Notes under the pieces: model-generated
What the model saw: the letters and a program-made list of their open reading frames with translations, nothing else
The model's database searches: none
Told to the model about the DNA's origin: nothing
In this document: positions 15,401 through 24,104 of the stretch, in pieces
Position numbering within the stretch: the stretch's first letter is position 1
Layout of the letters: each line of letters starts with the position of its first letter
Translations under genes and position numbers: made by a program
IMG/VR virus record: IMGVR_UViG_3300025646_005482
Location: 96,331-160,330 of that record
DNA: 64,000 bases
From: a virus
Strand: one strand, 5' to 3'

Positions 15401-15777
15401 ATCTTGAAGTAACTACACTCGAAGCCAACGGTGTAGCATTTACTGGTACTGGTGATGATGTCACGACTACTTCTACGACTATTATTGATTCGTTTGAATA
15501 TACTCAAACACAAGGATTTAAGTTCTTTGTACACGGTGAAAATATCAATGATGCCTCTTCTGGTTATGCGGTTGAAATCAATGTAATTGTAACAGATAAT
15601 AAAGACATCTACTATACACGATATGGCGAAGTTGAAAATAATATGTCAGATGTCGTGATTGTTCCTGCGCTGGCAGCTAACACAACTCACGTAATTCTGA
15701 ATGCAACGTGTGGTTCTGCGAGTGGTACAGATATACATAGATTCAAAGTTCTGAAGATAGAGACGAGAGCATCTTAA
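12415..15777 (+). CDS. Long tail-fibre-like structural protein with internal repeats
   Basis: N-terminal TFSDWLNKTNEL; repeated FG..DL.IYHDG..S.I and LY..G..K..T...G..ITG units; C-terminal IDSF..K..V..E..YG domain of marine phage fibres. Confidence 0.75.
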   Translation: MALLTGFDELDPGADTFSDWLNKTNELVLYLRGSTDAGQTSIMTANSQLGGSLTYGNATLWGQMAANSMVVFNNGDDDDFSANGEYGGLRGGTWVAAANAILTDTLYVVSNTTFTDDTIKVNVNSVYGLVVENTIDANGDVLFIGAGGSNTDPELQWEANNATLNWNDNIKATFGTGDDLEVYYTGTRGNVNTDILDIRGSTNTNIFTDDFEMRSQANNELMLTANVANGVELYWDGIKKVSSNTHGVEVYGQVIADNGFVTYNNQPIEMGGANYAAAHNFTIVTDGTDTTITETSNDLSVRVEDNFRVTDDTGATSLIVANTSGEVTLYHNNNQKMQTNAYGVEITGEANTDTLRVGSDANFDNNTLNSNSVHWDATLEVWNYRDDVKATFGDSDDWTLYYDAAGRAYSNVDNMDIRARTDMNIITDVFELKSETGPELYISAGVADNSTVRLYYEGNERLQTNTYGVEVTGQLVANGGIVAYNNQKLEMGGTNYAAAHNFEIYTDGTDSHITETGGGDLIVQANNIQIEDTSGQAYFCGTSGLGASVHYNGAIKLITTNIGIDITGQANTTTLRVQGNAAFENDGGVESMHWHSNDAVHGTHLHFEDDVQIKMGAAHDFVIYHEPGGNSYIKELGNGDLVLQANNMQLEDTSGQAYFCGTAGSGASMHFNGAQKLITTNIGLDITGEANTDTLRVQSTTLLEDDVYFDGTTADQLHWDSSQNELHYKDNVSAVFGNTDDLKIYHDGTDGRIVESTSGNLHVTANNLILEDTDGNQYVCGLAGLGTSIHYAGATKIITTNIGIDITGEANTDTLRVKSTTDLEDDIRIQGSTNSDTVTWDKSANTLNLDDYNYLTFGTGGDFTIHHDGSNTYMTEIGVGHLHVQANNVQIEDTDGDAYFCGLAGAGASIHFNGAQKLITTATGVDVTGKVVTDSLQVDGHVDLGASAADTISVLGEFDTALIPAVATANVGSVADPWDWGYFNDIVVANTATILNLEVTTLEANGVAFTGTGDDVTTTSTTIIDSFEYTQTQGFKFFVHGENINDASSGYAVEINVIVTDNKDIYYTRYGEVENNMSDVVIVPALAANTTHVILNATCGSASGTDIHRFKVLKIETRAS

Positions 15778-16193
15778 TGGCAAATGCAATATATGATAAA
15801 TACAAGGAAGCATTATTAAATGGTTCAGCAAATACGTCTCTAACTACTGAAACTGTTAAAGTTTCTTTGATCGAGTCTAATACTTCTGTTGAGCCATTTA
15901 CTTCTACAGATGAATTTTATAGTGATGTGACAAGTGTAGTTGCGACAGCTACACTGACTAATGTGACTGTAGCAGATGGTGTACTCGATGCTGATGATTT
16001 AGTATTTGAGTCTGTTACAGATACTACAGTAGACGGAGATGCTAACGCTTTGTTATTTTGGATAGACACTGGAAATACATCTACTAGCAGACTAGTTGCT
16101 TGGATGGACACTGACATAAACGGTTTACCAATTACTCCTGATGGCGCAAACGTAAATGTTACATGGAGCTCATCAGGAATATTCAAATTATAA
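15777..16193 (+). CDS. Small beta-rich virion structural protein
   Basis: MANAIYDKYKEALL..DADD..F..LVAWMD..LPITPDG.NV.VTW..GIFKL pattern of a widespread phage structural family. Confidence 0.65.
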   Translation: MANAIYDKYKEALLNGSANTSLTTETVKVSLIESNTSVEPFTSTDEFYSDVTSVVATATLTNVTVADGVLDADDLVFESVTDTTVDGDANALLFWIDTGNTSTSRLVAWMDTDINGLPITPDGANVNVTWSSSGIFKL

Positions 16194-16205: not shown

Positions 16206-17228
16206 ATGGCCGTATCATCACAAAAATTTGACACACTCGATGGATTAGTTGTCACGGGCCCGATGGAAATTGGCGGCAATGTGGCTGTCGACACGAACGT
16301 CCTTTTTGTAGACACTGTAAACAATCGTGTAGGTATCAATAAAACTCCAACTGTTGCGTTAGATGTTAGTGGTGCTGTAGCTATTACGAGCGGAAATATT
16401 ACTGGCCTAACTAATCTTGGAGCTGGTAATCTAAGTCTAAACACTGATACTATTACTGGTACAGCAGGTATAACACTAGACGCAGTGGGAGATATTTCTC
16501 TAGATGCTGATGGTGCCGACATTCTGTTAAAGGACGCTGGTACACAATACGGCGCTCTCACTAATTCTTCTGGCAATCTTGTAGTAAAGTCAGGTACTAC
16601 TACCGCGATGACACTTACATCGGCAGGTGGAGTTGTATTTTCTGATAACTTAGGTATATCAAACGGCAAACGTATCGATTTCGGTACGGTCATGGACATG
16701 ACTGCAGACTCACAGGGTGTTTTATTAAATGCAAACACATATCATCAAGGGTCTATCGTCAGTTATTTTGGCGGAGTAAAAGATACAAATACGTATCTAC
16801 AATTTAATGGTGCTGATTCTTTCCAAATAACAACTGGCGGAACAGTTAGAATGACCGTTAATAATAGCGGTGTGACTATTCCAGGGGCCTTGTTATTCGA
16901 TAGTGTTGCATCAGATCAACCATATTATGAAACAATCAATGCTCCTGCTGGACTAACATTTAATTTGAATAATGGATCAGCGTTTACTAAATCTGGTGGA
17001 GGAAGCGGAGGAACTGTAGTGTTTACCATGCCTTCAAGTCCCGGTACAAATAGTTTTGCATGGACAATTAAATTTATAAACTCTGGCGCATTGACTTGGC
17101 CAGCTAGTGTCAAGTGGTCTGAAGGAGTTCAACCGCCAGAATCTTCTGGAACTGATATATATAGTTTTGTAACGTACGACGGTGGAACCAACATCTATGG
17201 CTCACTCGCAGTTAGAAACGCGTCGTAA
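16206..17228 (+). CDS. Short fibre protein with shared C-terminal WP..V.WSEG..PP..GTDIYSF domain
   Basis: VDTNVLFVDTVNNRVGI fibre motif; C-terminus paralogous to those of the genes at 25844 and 27491. Confidence 0.7.
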   Translation: MAVSSQKFDTLDGLVVTGPMEIGGNVAVDTNVLFVDTVNNRVGINKTPTVALDVSGAVAITSGNITGLTNLGAGNLSLNTDTITGTAGITLDAVGDISLDADGADILLKDAGTQYGALTNSSGNLVVKSGTTTAMTLTSAGGVVFSDNLGISNGKRIDFGTVMDMTADSQGVLLNANTYHQGSIVSYFGGVKDTNTYLQFNGADSFQITTGGTVRMTVNNSGVTIPGALLFDSVASDQPYYETINAPAGLTFNLNNGSAFTKSGGGSGGTVVFTMPSSPGTNSFAWTIKFINSGALTWPASVKWSEGVQPPESSGTDIYSFVTYDGGTNIYGSLAVRNAS

Positions 17229-17238
17229 GGGGTAAGAT

Positions 17239-19116
17239 ATGGCTGGTGCTGGTGGTAAAGGGTTTTTAGATAGAACTTGGGCTGCAACATATGATCAGAC
17301 CTCAGCGGGTACTGCTCCTGGTTCTGACCTCAATGTAACATACGGCAAACAAATAATAGAAGTATCAGCAAGAGGTGGAACGGCTAGCGCTCCTATCTTG
17401 CAACCTGCTTATTCCGTCACAACCAATTATCCTGCTCGCGATTACACACAAAGCGCTTATCAGGTCACAACATTTTATGCAGATGAGATAACTAATTATC
17501 CTTCTCGTATCTTTACTCAGCCTGCATATTCAGTAATTACAAACTATCCGTCACGTAATGTTGCTGATCAACCAGCGTATGCAGTAATTACTAATTATCC
17601 TAGTCGTTCTACTAATCAACCTGCATATTCAGTAATTACAAACTATCCGTCTCGTGGTAACCCTGCGCAGCCTGCGTATAGTGTGACTACAAACTATCCG
17701 AGTCGAGCCGTACCTGATCAGCCAGCATATTCAGTAACGACTAACTATCCGAGTCGAGCCGTACCTGATCAGCCAGCATATTCAGTAACGACTAACTATC
17801 CAGCTCGTGCGACACCTGATCAACCAGCGTATGGTGTCACAACTAACTATCCTGCACGGCTATATCAACAGGCTTCTTATTCAAGTATTGTATATTATCC
17901 TGCTAGAACTAATTATCAGAGTTATCCTGCACGAACGACTAACTATCCGTCGCGCAACACACCATCACAGCCCGCATATACTACAAACTATCCTGCGCGA
18001 ACGACTAACTATCCAGCTCGAGCTGTACCGAATCAGCCCTCTTATACTGCAAGTTTTCCAGCGCGTTTCGTGCCTAATCAGCCTGCATACTCGCAAAATT
18101 TCCAAAACTTTAACATCTATATGGCATACTTGTGGGGGGTTATATATTATCCATCGCGTACGGTACCAAACCAGCCTGCGTATGTTGCTAGTTATCCAGC
18201 ACGTAACGTACCATCACAGCCCGGATATAGTGTAACTCAACCAGCATATAGTGTTTCTCATCCGGCCCGTGCTAATCCTGCACAGCCAGCATATAGTGTT
18301 ACTCAACCCGGTTATCAGGGTTCTGCGTATCAACCAGGATATTCTAATGTTACTAATTATCCTGCTAGAAATTATTATCAGAATGCATACTCTGTAACGA
18401 CAGCTTATCCGTCACGTGCTAATCCTGCGCAACCAGCATATAGTGTTACAACTAACTATCCGGCCCGTGCTAATCCTGCGCAACCAGCATATAGTGTGAC
18501 TACAAACTATCCATCACGAGCTAATCCTGCACAGCCAGCATATAGTGTAACTACAAACTATCCATCTCGTGCGACACCTGATCAACCAGCGTATAGTGTC
18601 ACGACTAACTATCCCTCTCGTAATTATTCAGAGGCAGCGTATAGTGTCACGACTAACTATCCATCGCGAGCTGTACCAAACCAACCTGCGTACTCTGTAG
18701 TGACAAATTATCCGTCACGTGCTACTACACAGCCTACATATTCTGTTACTCAACCAGCATATCAGGTTGTAACATATTATCCATCGCGAGTATATCAACA
18801 AGCAGCGTACAGTGTGATCACAAACTATCCATCTCGAGTAACAGCTGGTACCAGTGGTACAGCTACTACTTTGCAAATGACTGGCAAAGATGGTACTACA
18901 TATTTGTTGACAGCTCCAGGCACTGCGACGAATGTAGCTAACTACGCTGCTCCTCCCGTGGCTACTGCAGTATATGCAACTCTTTACGCGCCTGTGGTAA
19001 AAGAGCTAGCTAATGATCCTAATGAGGCAGATGTCACATTGGGTACAAGTCCTGCTGGTCAAACTAATCCGACATATCGGCCATTTGTCAATGTGAAGTA
19101 TGACGGCAACCCATAA
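17239..19116 (+). CDS. Pro/Tyr-rich repeat protein with mirror-symmetric arms (putative hairpin fibre or adhesin)
   Basis: 25 units related to QPAYSVTTNYPSR between a 54-aa N-terminal and a 92-aa C-terminal segment. SD-like AAGGGG upstream. Confidence 0.85.
   Translation: MAGAGGKGFLDRTWAATYDQTSAGTAPGSDLNVTYGKQIIEVSARGGTASAPILQPAYSVTTNYPARDYTQSAYQVTTFYADEITNYPSRIFTQPAYSVITNYPSRNVADQPAYAVITNYPSRSTNQPAYSVITNYPSRGNPAQPAYSVTTNYPSRAVPDQPAYSVTTNYPSRAVPDQPAYSVTTNYPARATPDQPAYGVTTNYPARLYQQASYSSIVYYPARTNYQSYPARTTNYPSRNTPSQPAYTTNYPARTTNYPARAVPNQPSYTASFPARFVPNQPAYSQNFQNFNIYMAYLWGVIYYPSRTVPNQPAYVASYPARNVPSQPGYSVTQPAYSVSHPARANPAQPAYSVTQPGYQGSAYQPGYSNVTNYPARNYYQNAYSVTTAYPSRANPAQPAYSVTTNYPARANPAQPAYSVTTNYPSRANPAQPAYSVTTNYPSRATPDQPAYSVTTNYPSRNYSEAAYSVTTNYPSRAVPNQPAYSVVTNYPSRATTQPTYSVTQPAYQVVTYYPSRVYQQAAYSVITNYPSRVTAGTSGTATTLQMTGKDGTTYLLTAPGTATNVANYAAPPVATAVYATLYAPVVKELANDPNEADVTLGTSPAGQTNPTYRPFVNVKYDGNP
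17401..18837 (+). repeat. Coding repeat array (mostly 48-51 bp units): arm 1 17401-18078, centre 18079-18159, arm 2 18160-18837
   Basis: Parsed from the translation; includes a perfect 51-bp tandem duplication at 17692-17801. Confidence 0.9.
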
Positions 19117-19159: not shown

Positions 19160-19786
19160 ATGTTTCAATTACCATACTCTCTTGTTCCTCCATACGAACT
19201 TCCCCATTTTGGTGTCATGGAAAAAGTGTTCGACGAAGAAGAAGTCGAACGCATTCGTTTCTATGAAAAAATTCTAGATTTTCAAGATGCTACGATTGTT
19301 GGGCAACAACAAGGCGATGAAGCTTCGCAAGAACAAACAGCCAGAATTGCAAAAAATGCAAGTATTCCACATGACGAAAATACTGTTTGGTTGTGGAATA
19401 AGATAGCGCATTTATCAGCAAAAGCAAATTATGATTTATTTTTATACGACATTTCTTTTCTCGAAGATTTAAGTTATACTGTCTACATAGGTACAGATAA
19501 CGGACACTATACAAAACACATAGATACTTCTTTATTTGGTTATCGCAGATACGATAGAAAAATATCTGGTATTTTAGTGTTGTCTGATCCAGATGAATAT
19601 GAAGGAGGCACTCTGAGTATTGATGTATACGGTGGCGCGCCTGAAGACAGATGGACGAGAATAGAAAAACCGAATAAAGGTGATTTAATTTTCTTTGATT
19701 CTAATTTCATTCACACGGTAGAACCAGTGACTAGTGGTAAACGTCAAGTGTTAGTATTTTGGGTACACGGTAAACAAAAACTATGA
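19160..19786 (+). CDS. 2OG-Fe(II) oxygenase (prolyl 4-hydroxylase/PKHD-like)
   Basis: HID iron motif, RKISGILVLSDPDEYEGG and distal H..V.PVTSGKR..LV.W. Confidence 0.9.
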   Translation: MFQLPYSLVPPYELPHFGVMEKVFDEEEVERIRFYEKILDFQDATIVGQQQGDEASQEQTARIAKNASIPHDENTVWLWNKIAHLSAKANYDLFLYDISFLEDLSYTVYIGTDNGHYTKHIDTSLFGYRRYDRKISGILVLSDPDEYEGGTLSIDVYGGAPEDRWTRIEKPNKGDLIFFDSNFIHTVEPVTSGKRQVLVFWVHGKQKL

Positions 19787-20496
19787 AAAGATTTTTTGGT
19801 AATGATATCATTGAGTTTTATACTTCTGATGATTTATATGGAAGTATACCCGAACCTGTAGAAGCAGCTAAATGTGTACCAGATTGGTTTAAAAAACTAA
19901 AACCATTCGTTGGAAGATCACGCGAAGGATTTCCTGAACCTACTGCAAAAAGATGCTTGCCTTTATTAGATGCGATGACTCACGGCTATATCATCCCATT
20001 ACAAGGTGATATTCATGTCATTTCTAATCATGATCTCAGTGTTATCAAGGCTAATGAACGAAACAGAGATGCTCTCTTCTTGATGGATGGACATCCTAGT
20101 TTTCAAGTAGATTCTGCTGCATGGCCAGTTCAAAAACAACATCCACTCAAATTTATCAATAAGTGGAGAATTAAAACGCGACCAGGTTGGTCGGTCCTTT
20201 TTACTGCGCCTTTAAATCATATTGGAATGCCATTTACAATTTTAAGTGGTGTTGTTGATAGTGATAAATATCATCGCGAGGTAAATTTTCCTGCAATATG
20301 GCATGTGCCTAATTATGATGGTACTTTAAAAGCTGGCATGCCATTAGCTCAAGTAATTCCATTTAAAAGAGAAAAGTTTCCTAAGGCAAAGCCGAGAGTA
20401 CAAAATAAAAAAGAAAGACAACATGAAGAAAAATTACGAGTTGCTATGGATAGCAGACATGGAGCTTATACTGAAGAGCTGAGAGAAAAGAGATAA
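19783..20496 (+). CDS. Conserved phage protein (DUF6065-like, probable dUTPase-like beta fold), paralog 1
   Basis: PDWFK..TAKRCLPLLDAMTHGYIIP..GVVDSD..NFP..AGMPLAQVIPFKR. Confidence 0.6.
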   Translation: MKRFFGNDIIEFYTSDDLYGSIPEPVEAAKCVPDWFKKLKPFVGRSREGFPEPTAKRCLPLLDAMTHGYIIPLQGDIHVISNHDLSVIKANERNRDALFLMDGHPSFQVDSAAWPVQKQHPLKFINKWRIKTRPGWSVLFTAPLNHIGMPFTILSGVVDSDKYHREVNFPAIWHVPNYDGTLKAGMPLAQVIPFKREKFPKAKPRVQNKKERQHEEKLRVAMDSRHGAYTEELREKR

Positions 20497-20504
20497 ATAG
20501 TAAT

Positions 20505-20762
20505 ATGAAGATATGGGATAAAATAGTTGCAAAGATCGATGCGTGGCTTCACGACGAATTCGAAGTCACCATTTATTTTGCAGGTGAAGTAATCGAAAAA
20601 CCAGACGGCAGCAAAGTCACTACAGGCAATCCGAAAACATATGTATGTAGTAAGTTGATTAAGGTTACTGAGACACATTTTAAATTTATAACAACCGATA
20701 AAAGATTAGTGGAGATTAAAACGGTAGCACCTGTGAGCTATGACGTCGTCAAAATCAAATAG
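20505..20762 (+). CDS. Hypothetical protein
   Basis: 85-aa ORF in operon context. Confidence 0.65.
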   Translation: MKIWDKIVAKIDAWLHDEFEVTIYFAGEVIEKPDGSKVTTGNPKTYVCSKLIKVTETHFKFITTDKRLVEIKTVAPVSYDVVKIK

Positions 20763-20770
20763 GAGCTAAC

Positions 20771-21100
20771 ATGGCCGAAGAAGAAAAAGAAGTAAAAGGC
20801 TTTCATCCAGCAGATACTAATGGTGACGGTAAAGTCAGTGAAGAAGAGCATGCAATGTATATGGAGTTTAAGAGAAAGGAACTAGAAGATGCCGATGCAA
20901 TGCGAGACGCACAACGAAATATGGCGTGGTTCTCTCTTGCTGGTATGCTTTTGTATCCCGCCATGGTTGTTGCTACTGATCTTGCTGGGTTAGAAAAAGC
21001 ATCGAACATTTTAGGTGATATGGCGCCGACCTATTTTGTTGCAGTCGCTGGTTTAGTTGCAGCGTTCTTTGGCGCACAAGCATGGAGCAAAGGTAAGTAA
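20771..21100 (+). CDS. Putative holin-like membrane protein with N-terminal EF-hand-like loop
   Basis: DTNGDGKVSEEE loop, two hydrophobic helices, SD AGGAG, directly upstream of the spanin pair. Confidence 0.6.
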   Translation: MAEEEKEVKGFHPADTNGDGKVSEEEHAMYMEFKRKELEDADAMRDAQRNMAWFSLAGMLLYPAMVVATDLAGLEKASNILGDMAPTYFVAVAGLVAAFFGAQAWSKGK

Positions 21101-21101
21101 T

Positions 21102-21497
21102 ATGCCGTATTTGATTTTATTATTGTTGCTTGGATCGATGGGCGGAGGCGCTTGGTATTATTATACCGATACACAAGAGCGCCTTGCAGTCCTTCGTGAT
21201 AACAATGCAAAGCTAATGATGGTGGCTGAGACTAATCAAGAAACCATCAACAGTCTGCAACGTGACTATGAACTCGCACAAGAGAACATGCTCGCACTTG
21301 CAGAGAGGGCGAAAGCAGCAGAAGTGTATCAAGACGAATTGGCTGCAAAGCTACGTCGTCATGACCTCACACGACTGACCCTACAAAAACCTGGACTAAT
21401 TGAAAAGAGAGTAAACAATGCTACGGACAAGATTTTCTCAGAGCTTGAAGTCGATTCTGGCGCTGAGCCTGTTGTTCCCGCTGATCAGCCTGAATAG
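21102..21497 (+). CDS. Inner-membrane spanin (Rz-like)
   Basis: Probable start ATG 21102; N-terminal TM (MPYLILLLLLG) followed by a coiled coil; overlaps a lipoprotein gene. Confidence 0.7.
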   Translation: MPYLILLLLLGSMGGGAWYYYTDTQERLAVLRDNNAKLMMVAETNQETINSLQRDYELAQENMLALAERAKAAEVYQDELAAKLRRHDLTRLTLQKPGLIEKRVNNATDKIFSELEVDSGAEPVVPADQPE

Positions 21498-21879
21498 TGG
21501 TTGTGCAAGCGTAGAACCAACTGTCGTAGTCAAGACCGACTACGTCGTCAAGGATATTCCTATCCAACCCCGCCCTAAACCTATGAATCTGCATAGGGTA
21601 AAGTTTTATGCTGTGACTCCTGAAAACATGGATGAGTTCCTCGTTCGGTTTGAAGAAGAGAGTGGTACTACTGTGTTCTTTGCATTGAGTGTTCCCGATT
21701 ATGAGAACATGAGCCTGAACGTAGCAGAACTGCGTCGATATATAAACCAGCAGAAAGCTCTAATTGTATATTATGAGGAATCTATCGAGACGATGATCAG
21801 AGAAACCCCAGAAGATACAGAAGAGGTAGTGCAAGAAGGAACAGATTCTCTGTTTGACCTTTTACCAAAATTTGATTGA
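21418..21879 (+). CDS. Outer-membrane spanin lipoprotein (Rz1-like)
   Basis: Signal peptide with lipobox-like LNSGC and a Pro-rich segment; overlaps the i-spanin 3' end. Confidence 0.7.
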   Translation: MLRTRFSQSLKSILALSLLFPLISLNSGCASVEPTVVVKTDYVVKDIPIQPRPKPMNLHRVKFYAVTPENMDEFLVRFEEESGTTVFFALSVPDYENMSLNVAELRRYINQQKALIVYYEESIETMIRETPEDTEEVVQEGTDSLFDLLPKFD

Positions 21880-22643
21880 GTAATAACTTTATGGGAATAA
21901 GATTCTCTGATATGTCAGGCCAGTTGTATACTGTTCATCCAATAGTCCCTGCAAGGTCTGTCGAGCCAGTACATAGAAAAATTCAAATGGAAAAATACAA
22001 CAGCGAGATGTTTGCGCTGTGTCCTGGTATCATGGACTTTAAAAATACTGGTTGGATTATGCCAGCGTGGGATGATATTAGAGTATACTGTTCTGAGAAA
22101 GCATCGATGGCGTATGCTGGCGGTCAAAAAAGACCACACAACTGGAAGCTTCCGCAGCCAGTAAAAAAAGTAGAATACTATGATGGCAGAGCTCACGCCG
22201 GTCCGATGGATAAGAGAATGGTCGATGGTGTTCCTGCAAATCACGGTTGTCCTATAAAAACAGGAACACAACCACTGCACTTTCAGTCCCCTTGGGCATG
22301 TGAAATGTTTGGTGATGATGTTGTTTCATTGATGTTATTGCCTCCATATTATCATAGTGATATAGTTGATCATGTGCAAGTTTATCCTGGCATTGTCGAT
22401 TATAATAATAAATTTGATACAATGAGTGTTGTACTAGCACCTCGTACACAGGGAACATTTACTATTAAAGCTGGAGAACCTTTAGTACATATTATTCCTA
22501 TTGAAAAGAAAACATACAATGCAGAATACGGTCCAGCAAAAATGAATCGCATGAAAGGACTGGTAGCTACGTGTAATCATTTTTATAGAAAATATATGAT
22601 GAGGAAAAGTCGTTATAATTTGGAATTGAATGAAGATGTTTGA
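21876..22643 (+). CDS. Conserved phage protein (DUF6065-like), paralog 2
   Basis: CPGIMDF..GWIMPAW..SPW..PGIVD..IKAGEPLVHIIP parallels the protein at 19783..20496. Confidence 0.6.
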   Translation: MSNNFMGIRFSDMSGQLYTVHPIVPARSVEPVHRKIQMEKYNSEMFALCPGIMDFKNTGWIMPAWDDIRVYCSEKASMAYAGGQKRPHNWKLPQPVKKVEYYDGRAHAGPMDKRMVDGVPANHGCPIKTGTQPLHFQSPWACEMFGDDVVSLMLLPPYYHSDIVDHVQVYPGIVDYNNKFDTMSVVLAPRTQGTFTIKAGEPLVHIIPIEKKTYNAEYGPAKMNRMKGLVATCNHFYRKYMMRKSRYNLELNEDV

Positions 22644-23433
22644 TAAAGAAAAACTGCGAGAATTAAAAGAAACTCTAAGACATGACGACAGACCAATTTT
22701 CCTAGAGAATGTATTAGATTCTCCTGAAGATTGGGCGAGTTGGAAGGATATAACTTATTGTTGTGAGAATCCGAGCATATACGATGTACGCTACTTTAAT
22801 AAAGTAGAATCTAAATATGATGGTGTGACCGTAGTAAAGCTCATGACTAATTCAGAGAATGAAGTTCATGCTATTGAACGCAGAGGAAGTTTAACTCGTA
22901 AAAATAAGAGATTAAATCCAGTTAAAGTTGTTGATGCTAAAAAGCTTTTAGACAAAAATCATTCTATCATAATTACTAATTTTGAATATAAAAATGAAAA
23001 TTGTAAGAGCATGATTGATTTTCTATGTCATCTATTTTATTACAATGTTGAAAATCATGGTGTATGGCCTGCAAAAATTGGTCCCAATTCTGGTCATGCC
23101 CATTGTTATGCAGGCAAAAAAGAAAGTAATTCTTTTTCTCCGCATGTAGATGGACCAGCGAATTTTATTTTTCAAATTGAAGGTCAACAAAAATTTACGG
23201 TGTACGAAAATAGAAAGTGTGCTTTAACAGAAATTGCCATGCCCGCAGATGCTACACTCGAATATAGAAAAGAAGTTTATGACAATCTGAGAGTATATGA
23301 AGAAAGAATAATGAATCCTGGTGATATGGTATATGTGCCATCTAGAACATATCATTATGTAGAACCAGTATCTGATCGTATTTCAATGAGTTTTCCTTTG
23401 ATCCTAAAGGGACCTACCTCGGTAATGTTGTAA
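22630..23433 (+). CDS. JmjC/cupin-type 2OG oxygenase (ribosomal-oxygenase/YcfD-like)
   Basis: SFSPHVD..NFIFQIEGQQKF and PGDMVYVPSRTYHYV give an HxD...H triad. Confidence 0.8.
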   Translation: MKMFDKEKLRELKETLRHDDRPIFLENVLDSPEDWASWKDITYCCENPSIYDVRYFNKVESKYDGVTVVKLMTNSENEVHAIERRGSLTRKNKRLNPVKVVDAKKLLDKNHSIIITNFEYKNENCKSMIDFLCHLFYYNVENHGVWPAKIGPNSGHAHCYAGKKESNSFSPHVDGPANFIFQIEGQQKFTVYENRKCALTEIAMPADATLEYRKEVYDNLRVYEERIMNPGDMVYVPSRTYHYVEPVSDRISMSFPLILKGPTSVML

Positions 23434-24104
23434 TGGAAATCAATATTAAACGACATGAATTGTGGACAGAAAGTATGTTCGAAATTCATTTGCCAGACAT
23501 AGACAATGAATCTATCATAAAGTTTTATGATGAAATAGAAAAAGTTGATCCTGGCCAAAAAAGATCCAACATTGGTGGTTGGCAAAGAGAAGTAAATCCC
23601 GGGGAATGTCAAGCATACGATGAATTGATGTATATGATGGCATACGCTGTCACAGATATTTTTAGAAATGTATTTAAATTGCCAATAGATTTAGCTATAG
23701 CAAATTCTTGGCTAAATTCTAATATATTAGGCGAGAATAATGCATTTCATACACATCCCGGCTGTGTTTATTCTGGTGTCTATTATATCAATGCTTCAAA
23801 AGATAAAGAAAATGGGTCTATTACATTTGTAAACCCTCAGCATCATGTGATCGAAGATTGGATTTCAAATTTGCCATTACGAAGTAACGGCGACATTGAT
23901 CATAAACAATGTGAAGTGTTGCATGAAGATAAACAGTTTGCTTCTACACAACATTTTGAACCCAAATCAAACTATGCTTATGTTTTTCCGCCGTGGACGG
24001 GACATGAAGTAAGAAAAAATCCACATTCCTTTAATCGTCTAGTTGCTGGAATCAATTTTAGACCAGCAAATCAGCCATTGCCTGAATTAAAAGATAGAGT
24101 TTAG
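23433..24104 (+). CDS. Putative 2OG-Fe(II) oxygenase (TIGR02466-like)
   Basis: SNIGGWQ, W.N, HTHP..SGVYY, FPPW..HEV and R...NF. Confidence 0.8.
   Translation: MEINIKRHELWTESMFEIHLPDIDNESIIKFYDEIEKVDPGQKRSNIGGWQREVNPGECQAYDELMYMMAYAVTDIFRNVFKLPIDLAIANSWLNSNILGENNAFHTHPGCVYSGVYYINASKDKENGSITFVNPQHHVIEDWISNLPLRSNGDIDHKQCEVLHEDKQFASTQHFEPKSNYAYVFPPWTGHEVRKNPHSFNRLVAGINFRPANQPLPELKDRV

Follow-up and report, generated by a model that had tools for sequence, protein, structure and literature searches.

The triple beta-spiral shafts of the adenovirus fibre and of reovirus sigma1 are assembled from repeats of ~15 residues, each of which contributes two strands and a Pro/Gly turn. The chain of these shafts runs in one direction, from an N-terminal anchor to a C-terminal head; the shafts have neither a second arm nor mirror order, nor do they require matched repeat numbers. 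Very long two-stranded antiparallel hairpins occur in the stems of beta-pore-forming toxins (anthrax PA pore, lysenin, aerolysin family). There, each arm comprises ~20-50 residues with a membrane-suited amphipathic alternation, the hairpins build large barrels, and repeats and Tyr/Pro motifs are absent. Among phage fibres, the needle of T4 gp37 consists of domain D11 (residues 882-1009, 128 residues), which is inserted in the collar domain D10 and runs out and back, so that the trimer contains six antiparallel strands; seven Fe ions bound to His motifs hold the needle together (PMC6957217, PMC7291167). Here we describe a protein of 625 amino acids (aa) encoded on a 64,000-nucleotide stretch of viral DNA (positions 96,331 to 160,330 of IMG/VR record IMGVR_UViG_3300025646_005482; the whole stretch is called the window in the following), in which two Pro/Tyr-rich repeat arms are exact mirror images of each other in their order of motifs and linkers. 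We consider it probable that this mirror-repeat protein is a fold-back stalk on a base domain and acts as a virion fibre of a T4-like myovirus, with a variable tip.

The mirror-repeat protein resembles the tip of the T4 long tail fibre, gp37 (presumably PDB entry 2XGF), in topology and in genomic context. In both proteins a base domain is formed by residues that flank an elongated insertion, which for the mirror-repeat protein is predicted by modelling and backed by comparative evidence. In both, the chain would run out and back in antiparallel strands, and the gp37 tip binds the receptor. The mirror-repeat gene also sits in a T4-type tail-fibre module. The author of an earlier note on this DNA, made from the sequence alone, had not recognised the architecture from described phage fibres. 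In topology, however, the D11-in-D10 arrangement of gp37 is a described precedent. On the other hand, there is no sequence similarity to gp37 (no PDB, Pfam or PHROG match to the mirror-repeat protein), and the insertion comprises 479 residues here and up to ~826 in a 973-aa relative (L005) compared with 128 in gp37, with arms that are 3.5 to 6 times longer. The mirror-repeat protein contains one His in 625 residues and no HxH, and it is built from tandem repeats, which gp37 lacks. Whereas the gp37 needle stands at the end of a 1026-residue shaft, the mirror-repeat protein begins directly at its base domain, and this domain is predicted to look like a jelly roll, unlike the gp37 collar. Plausibly, the mirror-repeat family lies outside the gp37 family, yet works like the gp37 needle. 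As a fold-back fibre, it would have an unprecedented design that is based on repeats and tunable in length. With the triple beta-spiral it would share short tandem repeats of two short strands with conserved Pro turns, in a thin viral fibre whose length is set by the repeat number; it differs in that both termini are predicted to lie in the same domain and in having two mirror arms of equal unit number. With the toxin stems it would have in common the very long two-stranded antiparallel hairpin, but nothing observed here points to insertion into membranes.

Two repeat arms in exact mirror order

The open reading frame (ORF) of the mirror-repeat protein (P0001; 17239..19116, + strand) is kept in >15 independent metagenomic assemblies. 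It is divided into an N-segment (aa 1-54, 17239..17400), an arm 1 of 12 outward units (aa 55-280, 17401..18078), a centre unit (aa 281-307, 18079..18159), an arm 2 of 12 returning units (aa 308-533, 18160..18837) and a C-segment (aa 534-625 and the stop codon, 18838..19116), all on the + strand. In the centre unit, which is the predicted turn or tip, a 19-residue aromatic/hydrophobic insert lies between a Q motif and a Y motif. The arms were delimited by tokenisation with regular expressions, which distinguish Q-type motifs (QPAY-like) from Y-type motifs (YPSR-like, including a degenerate YADE at residues 80-83). Counting residues 80-83 as a Y-type motif is a judgement call; it is supported by the AlphaFold model described below, since a strand break is predicted exactly at 80-83. 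Each unit follows the pattern Y-x5-Y, after which come a Pro-containing kink and a short linker. Pro and Tyr each account for 14% of the residues in the repeat region.

Reversing the tokenised series of motifs and gaps and exchanging Q with Y gives back the original series (0 mismatches), which makes arm 2 an exact mirror of arm 1. A Q motif stands opposite a Y motif throughout, the linker lengths run 3,3,4,3,4,4,4,4,3,4,4,4 in arm 1 and in exactly the reverse order in arm 2, and all four irregular unit pairs are mirrored. These features had been described in the earlier note, together with the segment lengths (54, 226, 27, 226 and 92 aa) and the 12 units per arm, and all of them were reproduced here. 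The first token starts at residue 55 and the last ends at residue 533; residue i thus stands opposite residue 588-i, and the centre of symmetry is at residue 294. An ungapped mirror scan matched 59 of the 77 Tyr residues at S=588, compared with 28 in the next best register. Given the composition, the chance of a mirror is 1/11,880 unit orders times 1/495 linker orders, which amounts to 1.7e-7. The mirror symmetry is confirmed as real and not due to chance.

Facing residues form recurrent combinations, with Tyr-Tyr observed 28 times, Thr-Val 24 times, Ser-Asn 19 times and Pro-Ala/Ser 45 times. All Arg residues of the arms face Gln or Glu (26 Gln-Arg pairs and one Arg-Glu pair). Inspection of facing units inside the window protein for residue covariation, for example of Ala/Ser in a Y motif with Pro in the opposite Q motif, gave no clear signal.

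In the DNA, no inverted repeat >15 nucleotides (nt) was found, in agreement with the earlier note. The repeats are direct, with a period of about 48-51 nt. Their 39-nt unit cores share only ~28-29 of 39 bases (~72-75%) while the encoded peptides are nearly identical, which indicates that the repeats are old and under purifying selection. A 142-aa ORF in another frame lies inside the repeat gene (17807-18235, +); in all likelihood it is an artefact of a repetitive sequence with few stop codons.

Matched arms in a metagenomic family

Relatives were gathered by two protein-database searches and two contig scans, and all members come from metagenomes. More than 15 distinct family members were obtained, which are 267-973 aa long, ~30-75% identical and carry 8 to 23 units in each arm. 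Conservation is found in the N- and C-segments, the former being the most conserved part of the family with 15 invariant columns in the alignment, and the repeats vary in number and even in type. In comparison with the closest full-length relative (L015), conservation is lowest in the centre, at 53% identity against 70-82% in the other segments.

If the two arms pair with each other, homologues should keep equal arms while their repeat number varies, as the earlier note had proposed. Unit numbers are equal in diverse relatives, from 8+8 to 23+23, with three exceptions that are discussed below. L015 (555 aa) has 10+10 units in exact mirror order (0 of 99 tokens mismatched), and each of its arms differs from that of the window protein by exactly two regular units. 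L016, from a second data set, appears to be the same protein as L015, with the same length and termini. In L017 (624 aa), 13+13 units again form an exact mirror (0 of 111 tokens mismatched), and a single Q7Y unit is found at position 10 of both arms. In the longest member (L005, 973 aa, 23+23 units), the sole Q5Y unit is third from either end. Equal arms are also present in L007 (782 aa, L007:3501-5849; 20+20 units), L022 (11+11) and P0005 (9+9), and in P0003 and L011, where 8+8 regular units flank a larger irregular tip.

Changes of the arms were found in matched form as well. L014 has 10+10 units; relative to L011, two units are duplicated in each arm, at units 3-6. P0007 and L012 carry a 12-residue His/Pro-rich linker that is specific to their lineage and is the second linker from each end. 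In the window clade, the N arm has Q5Y3Y as its 20-residue second unit and the C arm has Q3Q5Y; most other clades show the converse arrangement in both arms, and in L005, L007 and L017 the swapped pair is the terminal unit. Matching was also observed with another repeat type. The arms of L030 (54-2063) contain 9+9 units in alternating pairs of 19- and 18-residue Pro/Tyr/Thr units, with every long unit opposite a short one and with a Cys-rich tip that carries four Cys. P0002 (352 aa, 6+6 units, on a 2-kb Logan contig) is palindromic too; it was not counted, because any collapse within the run of 4-residue linkers gives the same pattern.

The mirror order was assessed statistically across the family. 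A self-reverse alignment with BLOSUM62 worked for the window protein and was too noisy in distant relatives, and the ungapped Tyr mirror scan fails in relatives with uncompensated one-residue arm differences. The BLOSUM62 alignment was replaced by an alignment of aromatic/Pro features, which was compared with segment-shuffled arms (2000 shuffles). Mirror order beat the shuffled arms in 15 of 15 members tested (z 2.9-13.5), with at most 12 of 2000 shuffles reaching the observed score. The mirror constraint, its conservation and the compensatory changes are direct observations. Taken from the sequences, they strongly support that the two arms are constrained to match in antiparallel order, with matched changes in both. 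Compensatory covariation such as this is what establishes stems in RNA, and we read it here as a strong indication of physically matched, antiparallel arms.

The region between the arms differs among members. A Gly-rich turn lies at most 5 residues from the midpoint in P0003-P0007, despite arm lengths of 155 to 223 residues. In L011, L013, L014 and P0003, ~130-150 irregular aromatic/Gly/Pro-rich residues (~residues 195-330) replace the simple turn and show no mirror order. The irregular tip of this clade may be a globular distal head.

Structure prediction

AlphaFold2 was run on the family alignment to give two models, one of the window protein (mean predicted local distance difference test score, pLDDT, of 43) and one of P0002 (53.5). 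AlphaFold was fairly confident (block-mean pLDDT ~66-87) for the N-segment, the C-segment and the first units of both arms. For aa 11-60 the block-mean pLDDT was 53-87, with strands at 17-23 and 38-45, and for the C-segment it was mostly 66-86. Residues 15-55 and 535-625 were united in one compact domain. A base domain formed jointly by the N- and C-segments, as suggested in the earlier note, is thus predicted by AlphaFold in two models. In the arms, strands were modelled at exactly mirrored positions, for example 58-64 with 524-530 and 67-71 with 517-521, with two-residue breaks at each Pro-Ala or Pro-Ser.

In structure comparisons with VIA (three runs), only the base domain was matched, and these alignments are uninformative on the arms. 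Over 93-117 aligned residues, these matches reach from residue 15 to residue 625 of the model. The base domain aligns as a whole to TNF, C1q, lambda gpJ, phage cement and baseplate proteins and Bdellovibrio fibre tips (Z 5.7-7.1, 84-121 residues). The best TNF, C1q, BAFF and CD40L matches have Z 5.4-5.9 and a root-mean-square deviation of 3.2-4.0 over 101-113 residues, where the reliable level of the tool is Z 8. Many of the jelly rolls that align weakly in this way (TNF, BAFF, C1q, lambda gpJ, phage cement and Bdellovibrio fibre-tip proteins) are trimeric fibre heads or attached to particles. Unlike the mirror-repeat protein, none of the TNF/C1q-like and viral jelly rolls bears a repeat hairpin insertion, and they share no sequence similarity with it.

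Foldseek searches with the P0002 model returned non-significant best matches (E 0.025-1), which are long beta-hairpin stems (anthrax PA pore, lysenin, epsilon toxin and phi29 tail). The type of these matches suggests that the model is an extended hairpin. No solenoid was found among the top PDB matches of Foldseek and VIA, with the arms modelled at low confidence. In the viral library, a single 'parallel beta-helix repeat' protein appeared at rank 3 and was non-significant, and in BFVD a borderline match to a 639-aa viral protein was obtained (E 8.5e-4, template-modelling score about 0.08). The ESM Atlas model of the window protein was poor (pLDDT 0.39) and had no usable neighbours.

A probable fold-back stalk and competing explanations

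In the reading that we favour, the N-segment (residues 1-54) and the C-segment (534-625) would co-fold into a small jelly-roll-like base domain, from which the 479-residue insertion would project as a stalk. Arm 1 would run outward, the chain would turn at the variable aromatic or Gly-rich centre, and arm 2 would run back, with unit k of arm 1, counted from the base, packing antiparallel on unit k of arm 2. Each unit would provide a short strand between two Tyr (Y-x5-Y), followed by a Pro kink and a short linker. Across the stalk, Tyr would lie opposite Tyr, Gln opposite Arg, Thr opposite Val, and Pro opposite Ala or Ser. The geometry that we favour is a two-stranded antiparallel ribbon, which would be kinked at every motif. 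Its Tyr/Val face is probably buried by oligomerisation, possibly in a trimer by analogy with phage fibres. Judged from the gene context, the protein may form a fibre or whisker on the virion of a T4-like myovirus. Its conserved base would attach it to the particle, perhaps via the fibre protein encoded just upstream, and the hypervariable tip would touch the host. The stalk length would evolve by equal gain or loss of repeats in both arms. Ribbon geometry, oligomeric state, location in the virion and function are what we infer here beyond the predicted base domain and the observed mirror constraint.

Several observations weigh against this reading. All fold matches of the base domain have Z <8 and fall within the noise range stated by the tool. 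AlphaFold confidence is <50 in most of both arms; contact between the arms is for this reason inferred from evolution and not seen. Additionally, a mirrored sequence would yield mirrored secondary structure under any fold. With the whole protein, the C-segment and the N-segment as tblastn queries, no relative was found in 50,697 phage genomes. In L007, the units of arm 1 have 15 residues and those of arm 2 have 14, which gives a one-residue offset in 19 of 20 unit pairs, and in L022 five 4-residue linkers stand opposite 3-residue linkers (17 vs 16 aa units). A continuous ladder would need regular bulges in both proteins. Unequal arms were observed in three cases. L009 has 9+12 units, L032 (1953-3740) has 9+5 units, and in L019 (179 aa, on a 1.1-kb contig) the arms are almost wholly lost between two identical motifs.

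These three cases are either assembly collapses or rare natural variants, each explained by a single block event or collapse. Arm 2 of L009 contains a recent 147-nt three-unit tandem duplication (L009:4474-4703; 84% identity over 83 nt, with a long exact core), and L032 corresponds to L030 minus one 74-residue arm-2 block between direct repeats. Freely unequal arms, which according to the earlier note would speak against the hairpin, were not found in the family; only L009, L032 and L019 deviate, by one event each. Since L007 and L022 pair units of unequal length, the pairing code acts on units and not always on residues. As judged by sequence comparison, the exact residue register is a property of the window clade and not of the whole family. 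From the single antiparallel hairpin that had been proposed for the protein, the matching of the arms in antiparallel order stands and is borne out by the family-wide covariation. The continuous residue ladder of 70-80 nm that went with it stays hypothetical, given the arm confidence of <50 and the unit lengths of L007 and L022.

In the most far-reaching form of the fold-back reading, which we regard as possible but doubtful, the arms would be one continuous kinked antiparallel ribbon. No other known beta-hairpin would approach it in length, with 226 residues per arm here and ~400 in a relative, corresponding to ~75-130 nm. Such a ribbon would be the counterpart in protein of an RNA stem-loop, following a code in which Tyr pairs with Tyr, Gln with Arg, Thr with Val, and Pro with Ala or Ser. 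In evolution, its length would change as repeats are gained or lost in both arms in a compensatory manner, and hydroxylation by the adjacent oxygenase would possibly stabilise it.

The stalk could also fold back in a compact manner, although we consider this unlikely. In this case each arm would be a local two-sided beta-roll or beta-solenoid, in which every unit of 14-19 residues makes one coil with a rise of 0.48 nm, and the two antiparallel rods would lie side by side. The stalk would be only ~6 nm long (11 nm in the 973-aa relative), and equal unit numbers would just let the chain ends meet in the base domain. The unequal units of L007 (15 vs 14 aa) and L022 (17 vs 16 aa) are unproblematic here if the coil size differs per arm. 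The period of 14-19 residues is within the known beta-roll range, and the AlphaFold pattern, in which strands of 7 and 5 residues alternate and are each followed by a 2-residue break, suits a coil as well as a ribbon. However, a compact stalk leaves unexplained why the interspersed 3- and 4-residue linkers are mirrored exactly in three independent proteins (12/12, 10/10 and 13/13) and why the extra motif type is swapped between the arms. The strands also drop from 7 to 5 residues in single units, by which a solenoid would be distorted. The top Foldseek matches in the PDB are long antiparallel hairpins and include no solenoid; the viral library contributes the one non-significant 'parallel beta-helix repeat' protein at rank 3.

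The same mirror constraint on the sequence would result if the arms paired between chains. Two molecules, or an even number of them, would then associate head to tail with arm 1 on arm 2 of the partner, and the N-segment would complete the C-segment of the other chain. We consider this arrangement improbable. A canonical Gly-rich hairpin turn is found at the exact midpoint of P0004-P0007, and other members have a distinct tip insert at the midpoint, which is Cys-rich in L030; both features suggest that the chain reverses there. Moreover, AlphaFold closes the base domain inside one chain, and phage fibres are typically parallel trimers.

Still less probable is that the repeats form a flexible and for the most part disordered Pro/Tyr-rich spacer, which might be hydroxylated or cross-linked in the manner of extensins; the mirror order would then be structurally meaningless. 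The high content of Pro and Tyr in the repeat region (14% each), the low confidence of AlphaFold and ESM in the arms, and the prolyl/lysyl-hydroxylase-type oxygenase gene that always adjoins would fit such a spacer. It does not explain, however, the equal unit numbers, the mirrored irregular units and the compensatory insertions in >12 lineages, nor why the repeat peptides are near-constant although synonymous sites have diverged.

Finally, one might see in the mirror a by-product of how repeats evolve, of assembly or of chance, as when array edges degenerate round an inserted centre. This idea is effectively refuted: tandem arrays do degenerate at their edges and assembly collapse clearly happens in the family (L019), but the window protein by itself has a chance of only ~2e-7, exact mirroring is seen again in relatives that were assembled independently and differ in unit number, the DNA contains no inverted repeat, and collapse would break the symmetry and not make it.

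Genomic neighbourhood and an adjoining oxygenase gene

The source virus record comprises 160,330 bases of an uncultivated virus and is 89% complete according to CheckV. Its major capsid protein is ~60% identical to those of T4-like myoviruses of the phiM12 / HTVC008M / DLP6 group. In the window, the mirror-repeat gene is surrounded by a baseplate/tail-fibre module that includes a gp6/gp8-like wedge protein, a 2082-aa giant protein and several fibre-like proteins. The mirror-repeat protein itself matched no family in Pfam (E up to 0.01) or PHROGs (E up to 0.001), and a phmmer search against all PDB chains gave a single chance match (E 0.23).

A Shine-Dalgarno-like AAGGGG (17227..17232, +) is followed by the ATG of the mirror-repeat gene 6 nt downstream and overlaps the stop codon of the upstream gene. 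This upstream gene (340 aa, 16206..17228, +) ends 10 nt before the mirror-repeat ORF and is classed as fibre-like by weak PHROG tail-fibre matches. In every relative examined, a fibre-like gene of 340-390 aa immediately precedes the mirror-repeat gene. A phrog_644 gene (137-141 aa; window 15777-16193) always precedes these two genes. The conserved gene order is a 137-aa gene, the ~350-aa fibre gene, the mirror-repeat gene and an oxygenase gene.

The oxygenase gene encodes a 2-oxoglutarate (2OG)-Fe(II) oxygenase of the PKHD type (PF13640; 19160..19786, +) and lies directly 3' of the mirror-repeat gene. A PF13640 oxygenase gene was found at this position in 9 of 9 loci checked (window, L001, L002, L005, L007, L009, L011, L012 and L014). 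The nearest solved relatives of the oxygenase are PiuC-type PKHD (prolyl/lysyl) hydroxylases (E ~6e-9). The Pro-rich repeats are candidate substrates of this neighbouring enzyme and may be hydroxylated by it. Virus PBCV-1 reportedly encodes a prolyl 4-hydroxylase with Pro-rich repeat substrates. The locus described here is similar in that a virus-encoded 2OG-Fe(II) hydroxylase occurs together with virus-encoded Pro-rich tandem repeats, and hydroxylation of the latter would be a further, conjectural parallel.

Further oxygenase-like genes follow the PF13640 gene at window 19783-24104. This region contains two genes for DUF6065 proteins (19783-20496 and 21876-22643), a gene for a phrog_8014 protein (22630-23433) with a weak 2OG-oxygenase match, whose positional counterpart in L001 has JmjC_2, and a second 2OG-Fe(II) oxygenase gene (23433-24104). 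An Rz-like spanin pair (21057-21879) is embedded among these oxygenase-like genes, within the structural module.

Biological implications

The covariation of the arms is akin to that by which RNA helices are proved, but it is found in a protein and at the scale of whole repeats, as matched duplications, insertions and a motif swap in arms that lie hundreds of residues apart. Through it, the topology of a phage fibre that has not been characterised can be read from the sequence alone. The family points to a simple, evolvable route to thin fibres of adjustable length from a short gene, which is also a possible scaffold. At the same time, it raises the folding problem of how arms of 200-400 residues find their register. 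The invariably adjoining hydroxylase gene is a testable lead on post-translational modification of virion proteins. With its variable tip and conserved base, the family is a candidate host-recognition module of abundant uncultivated marine-type T4-like viruses.

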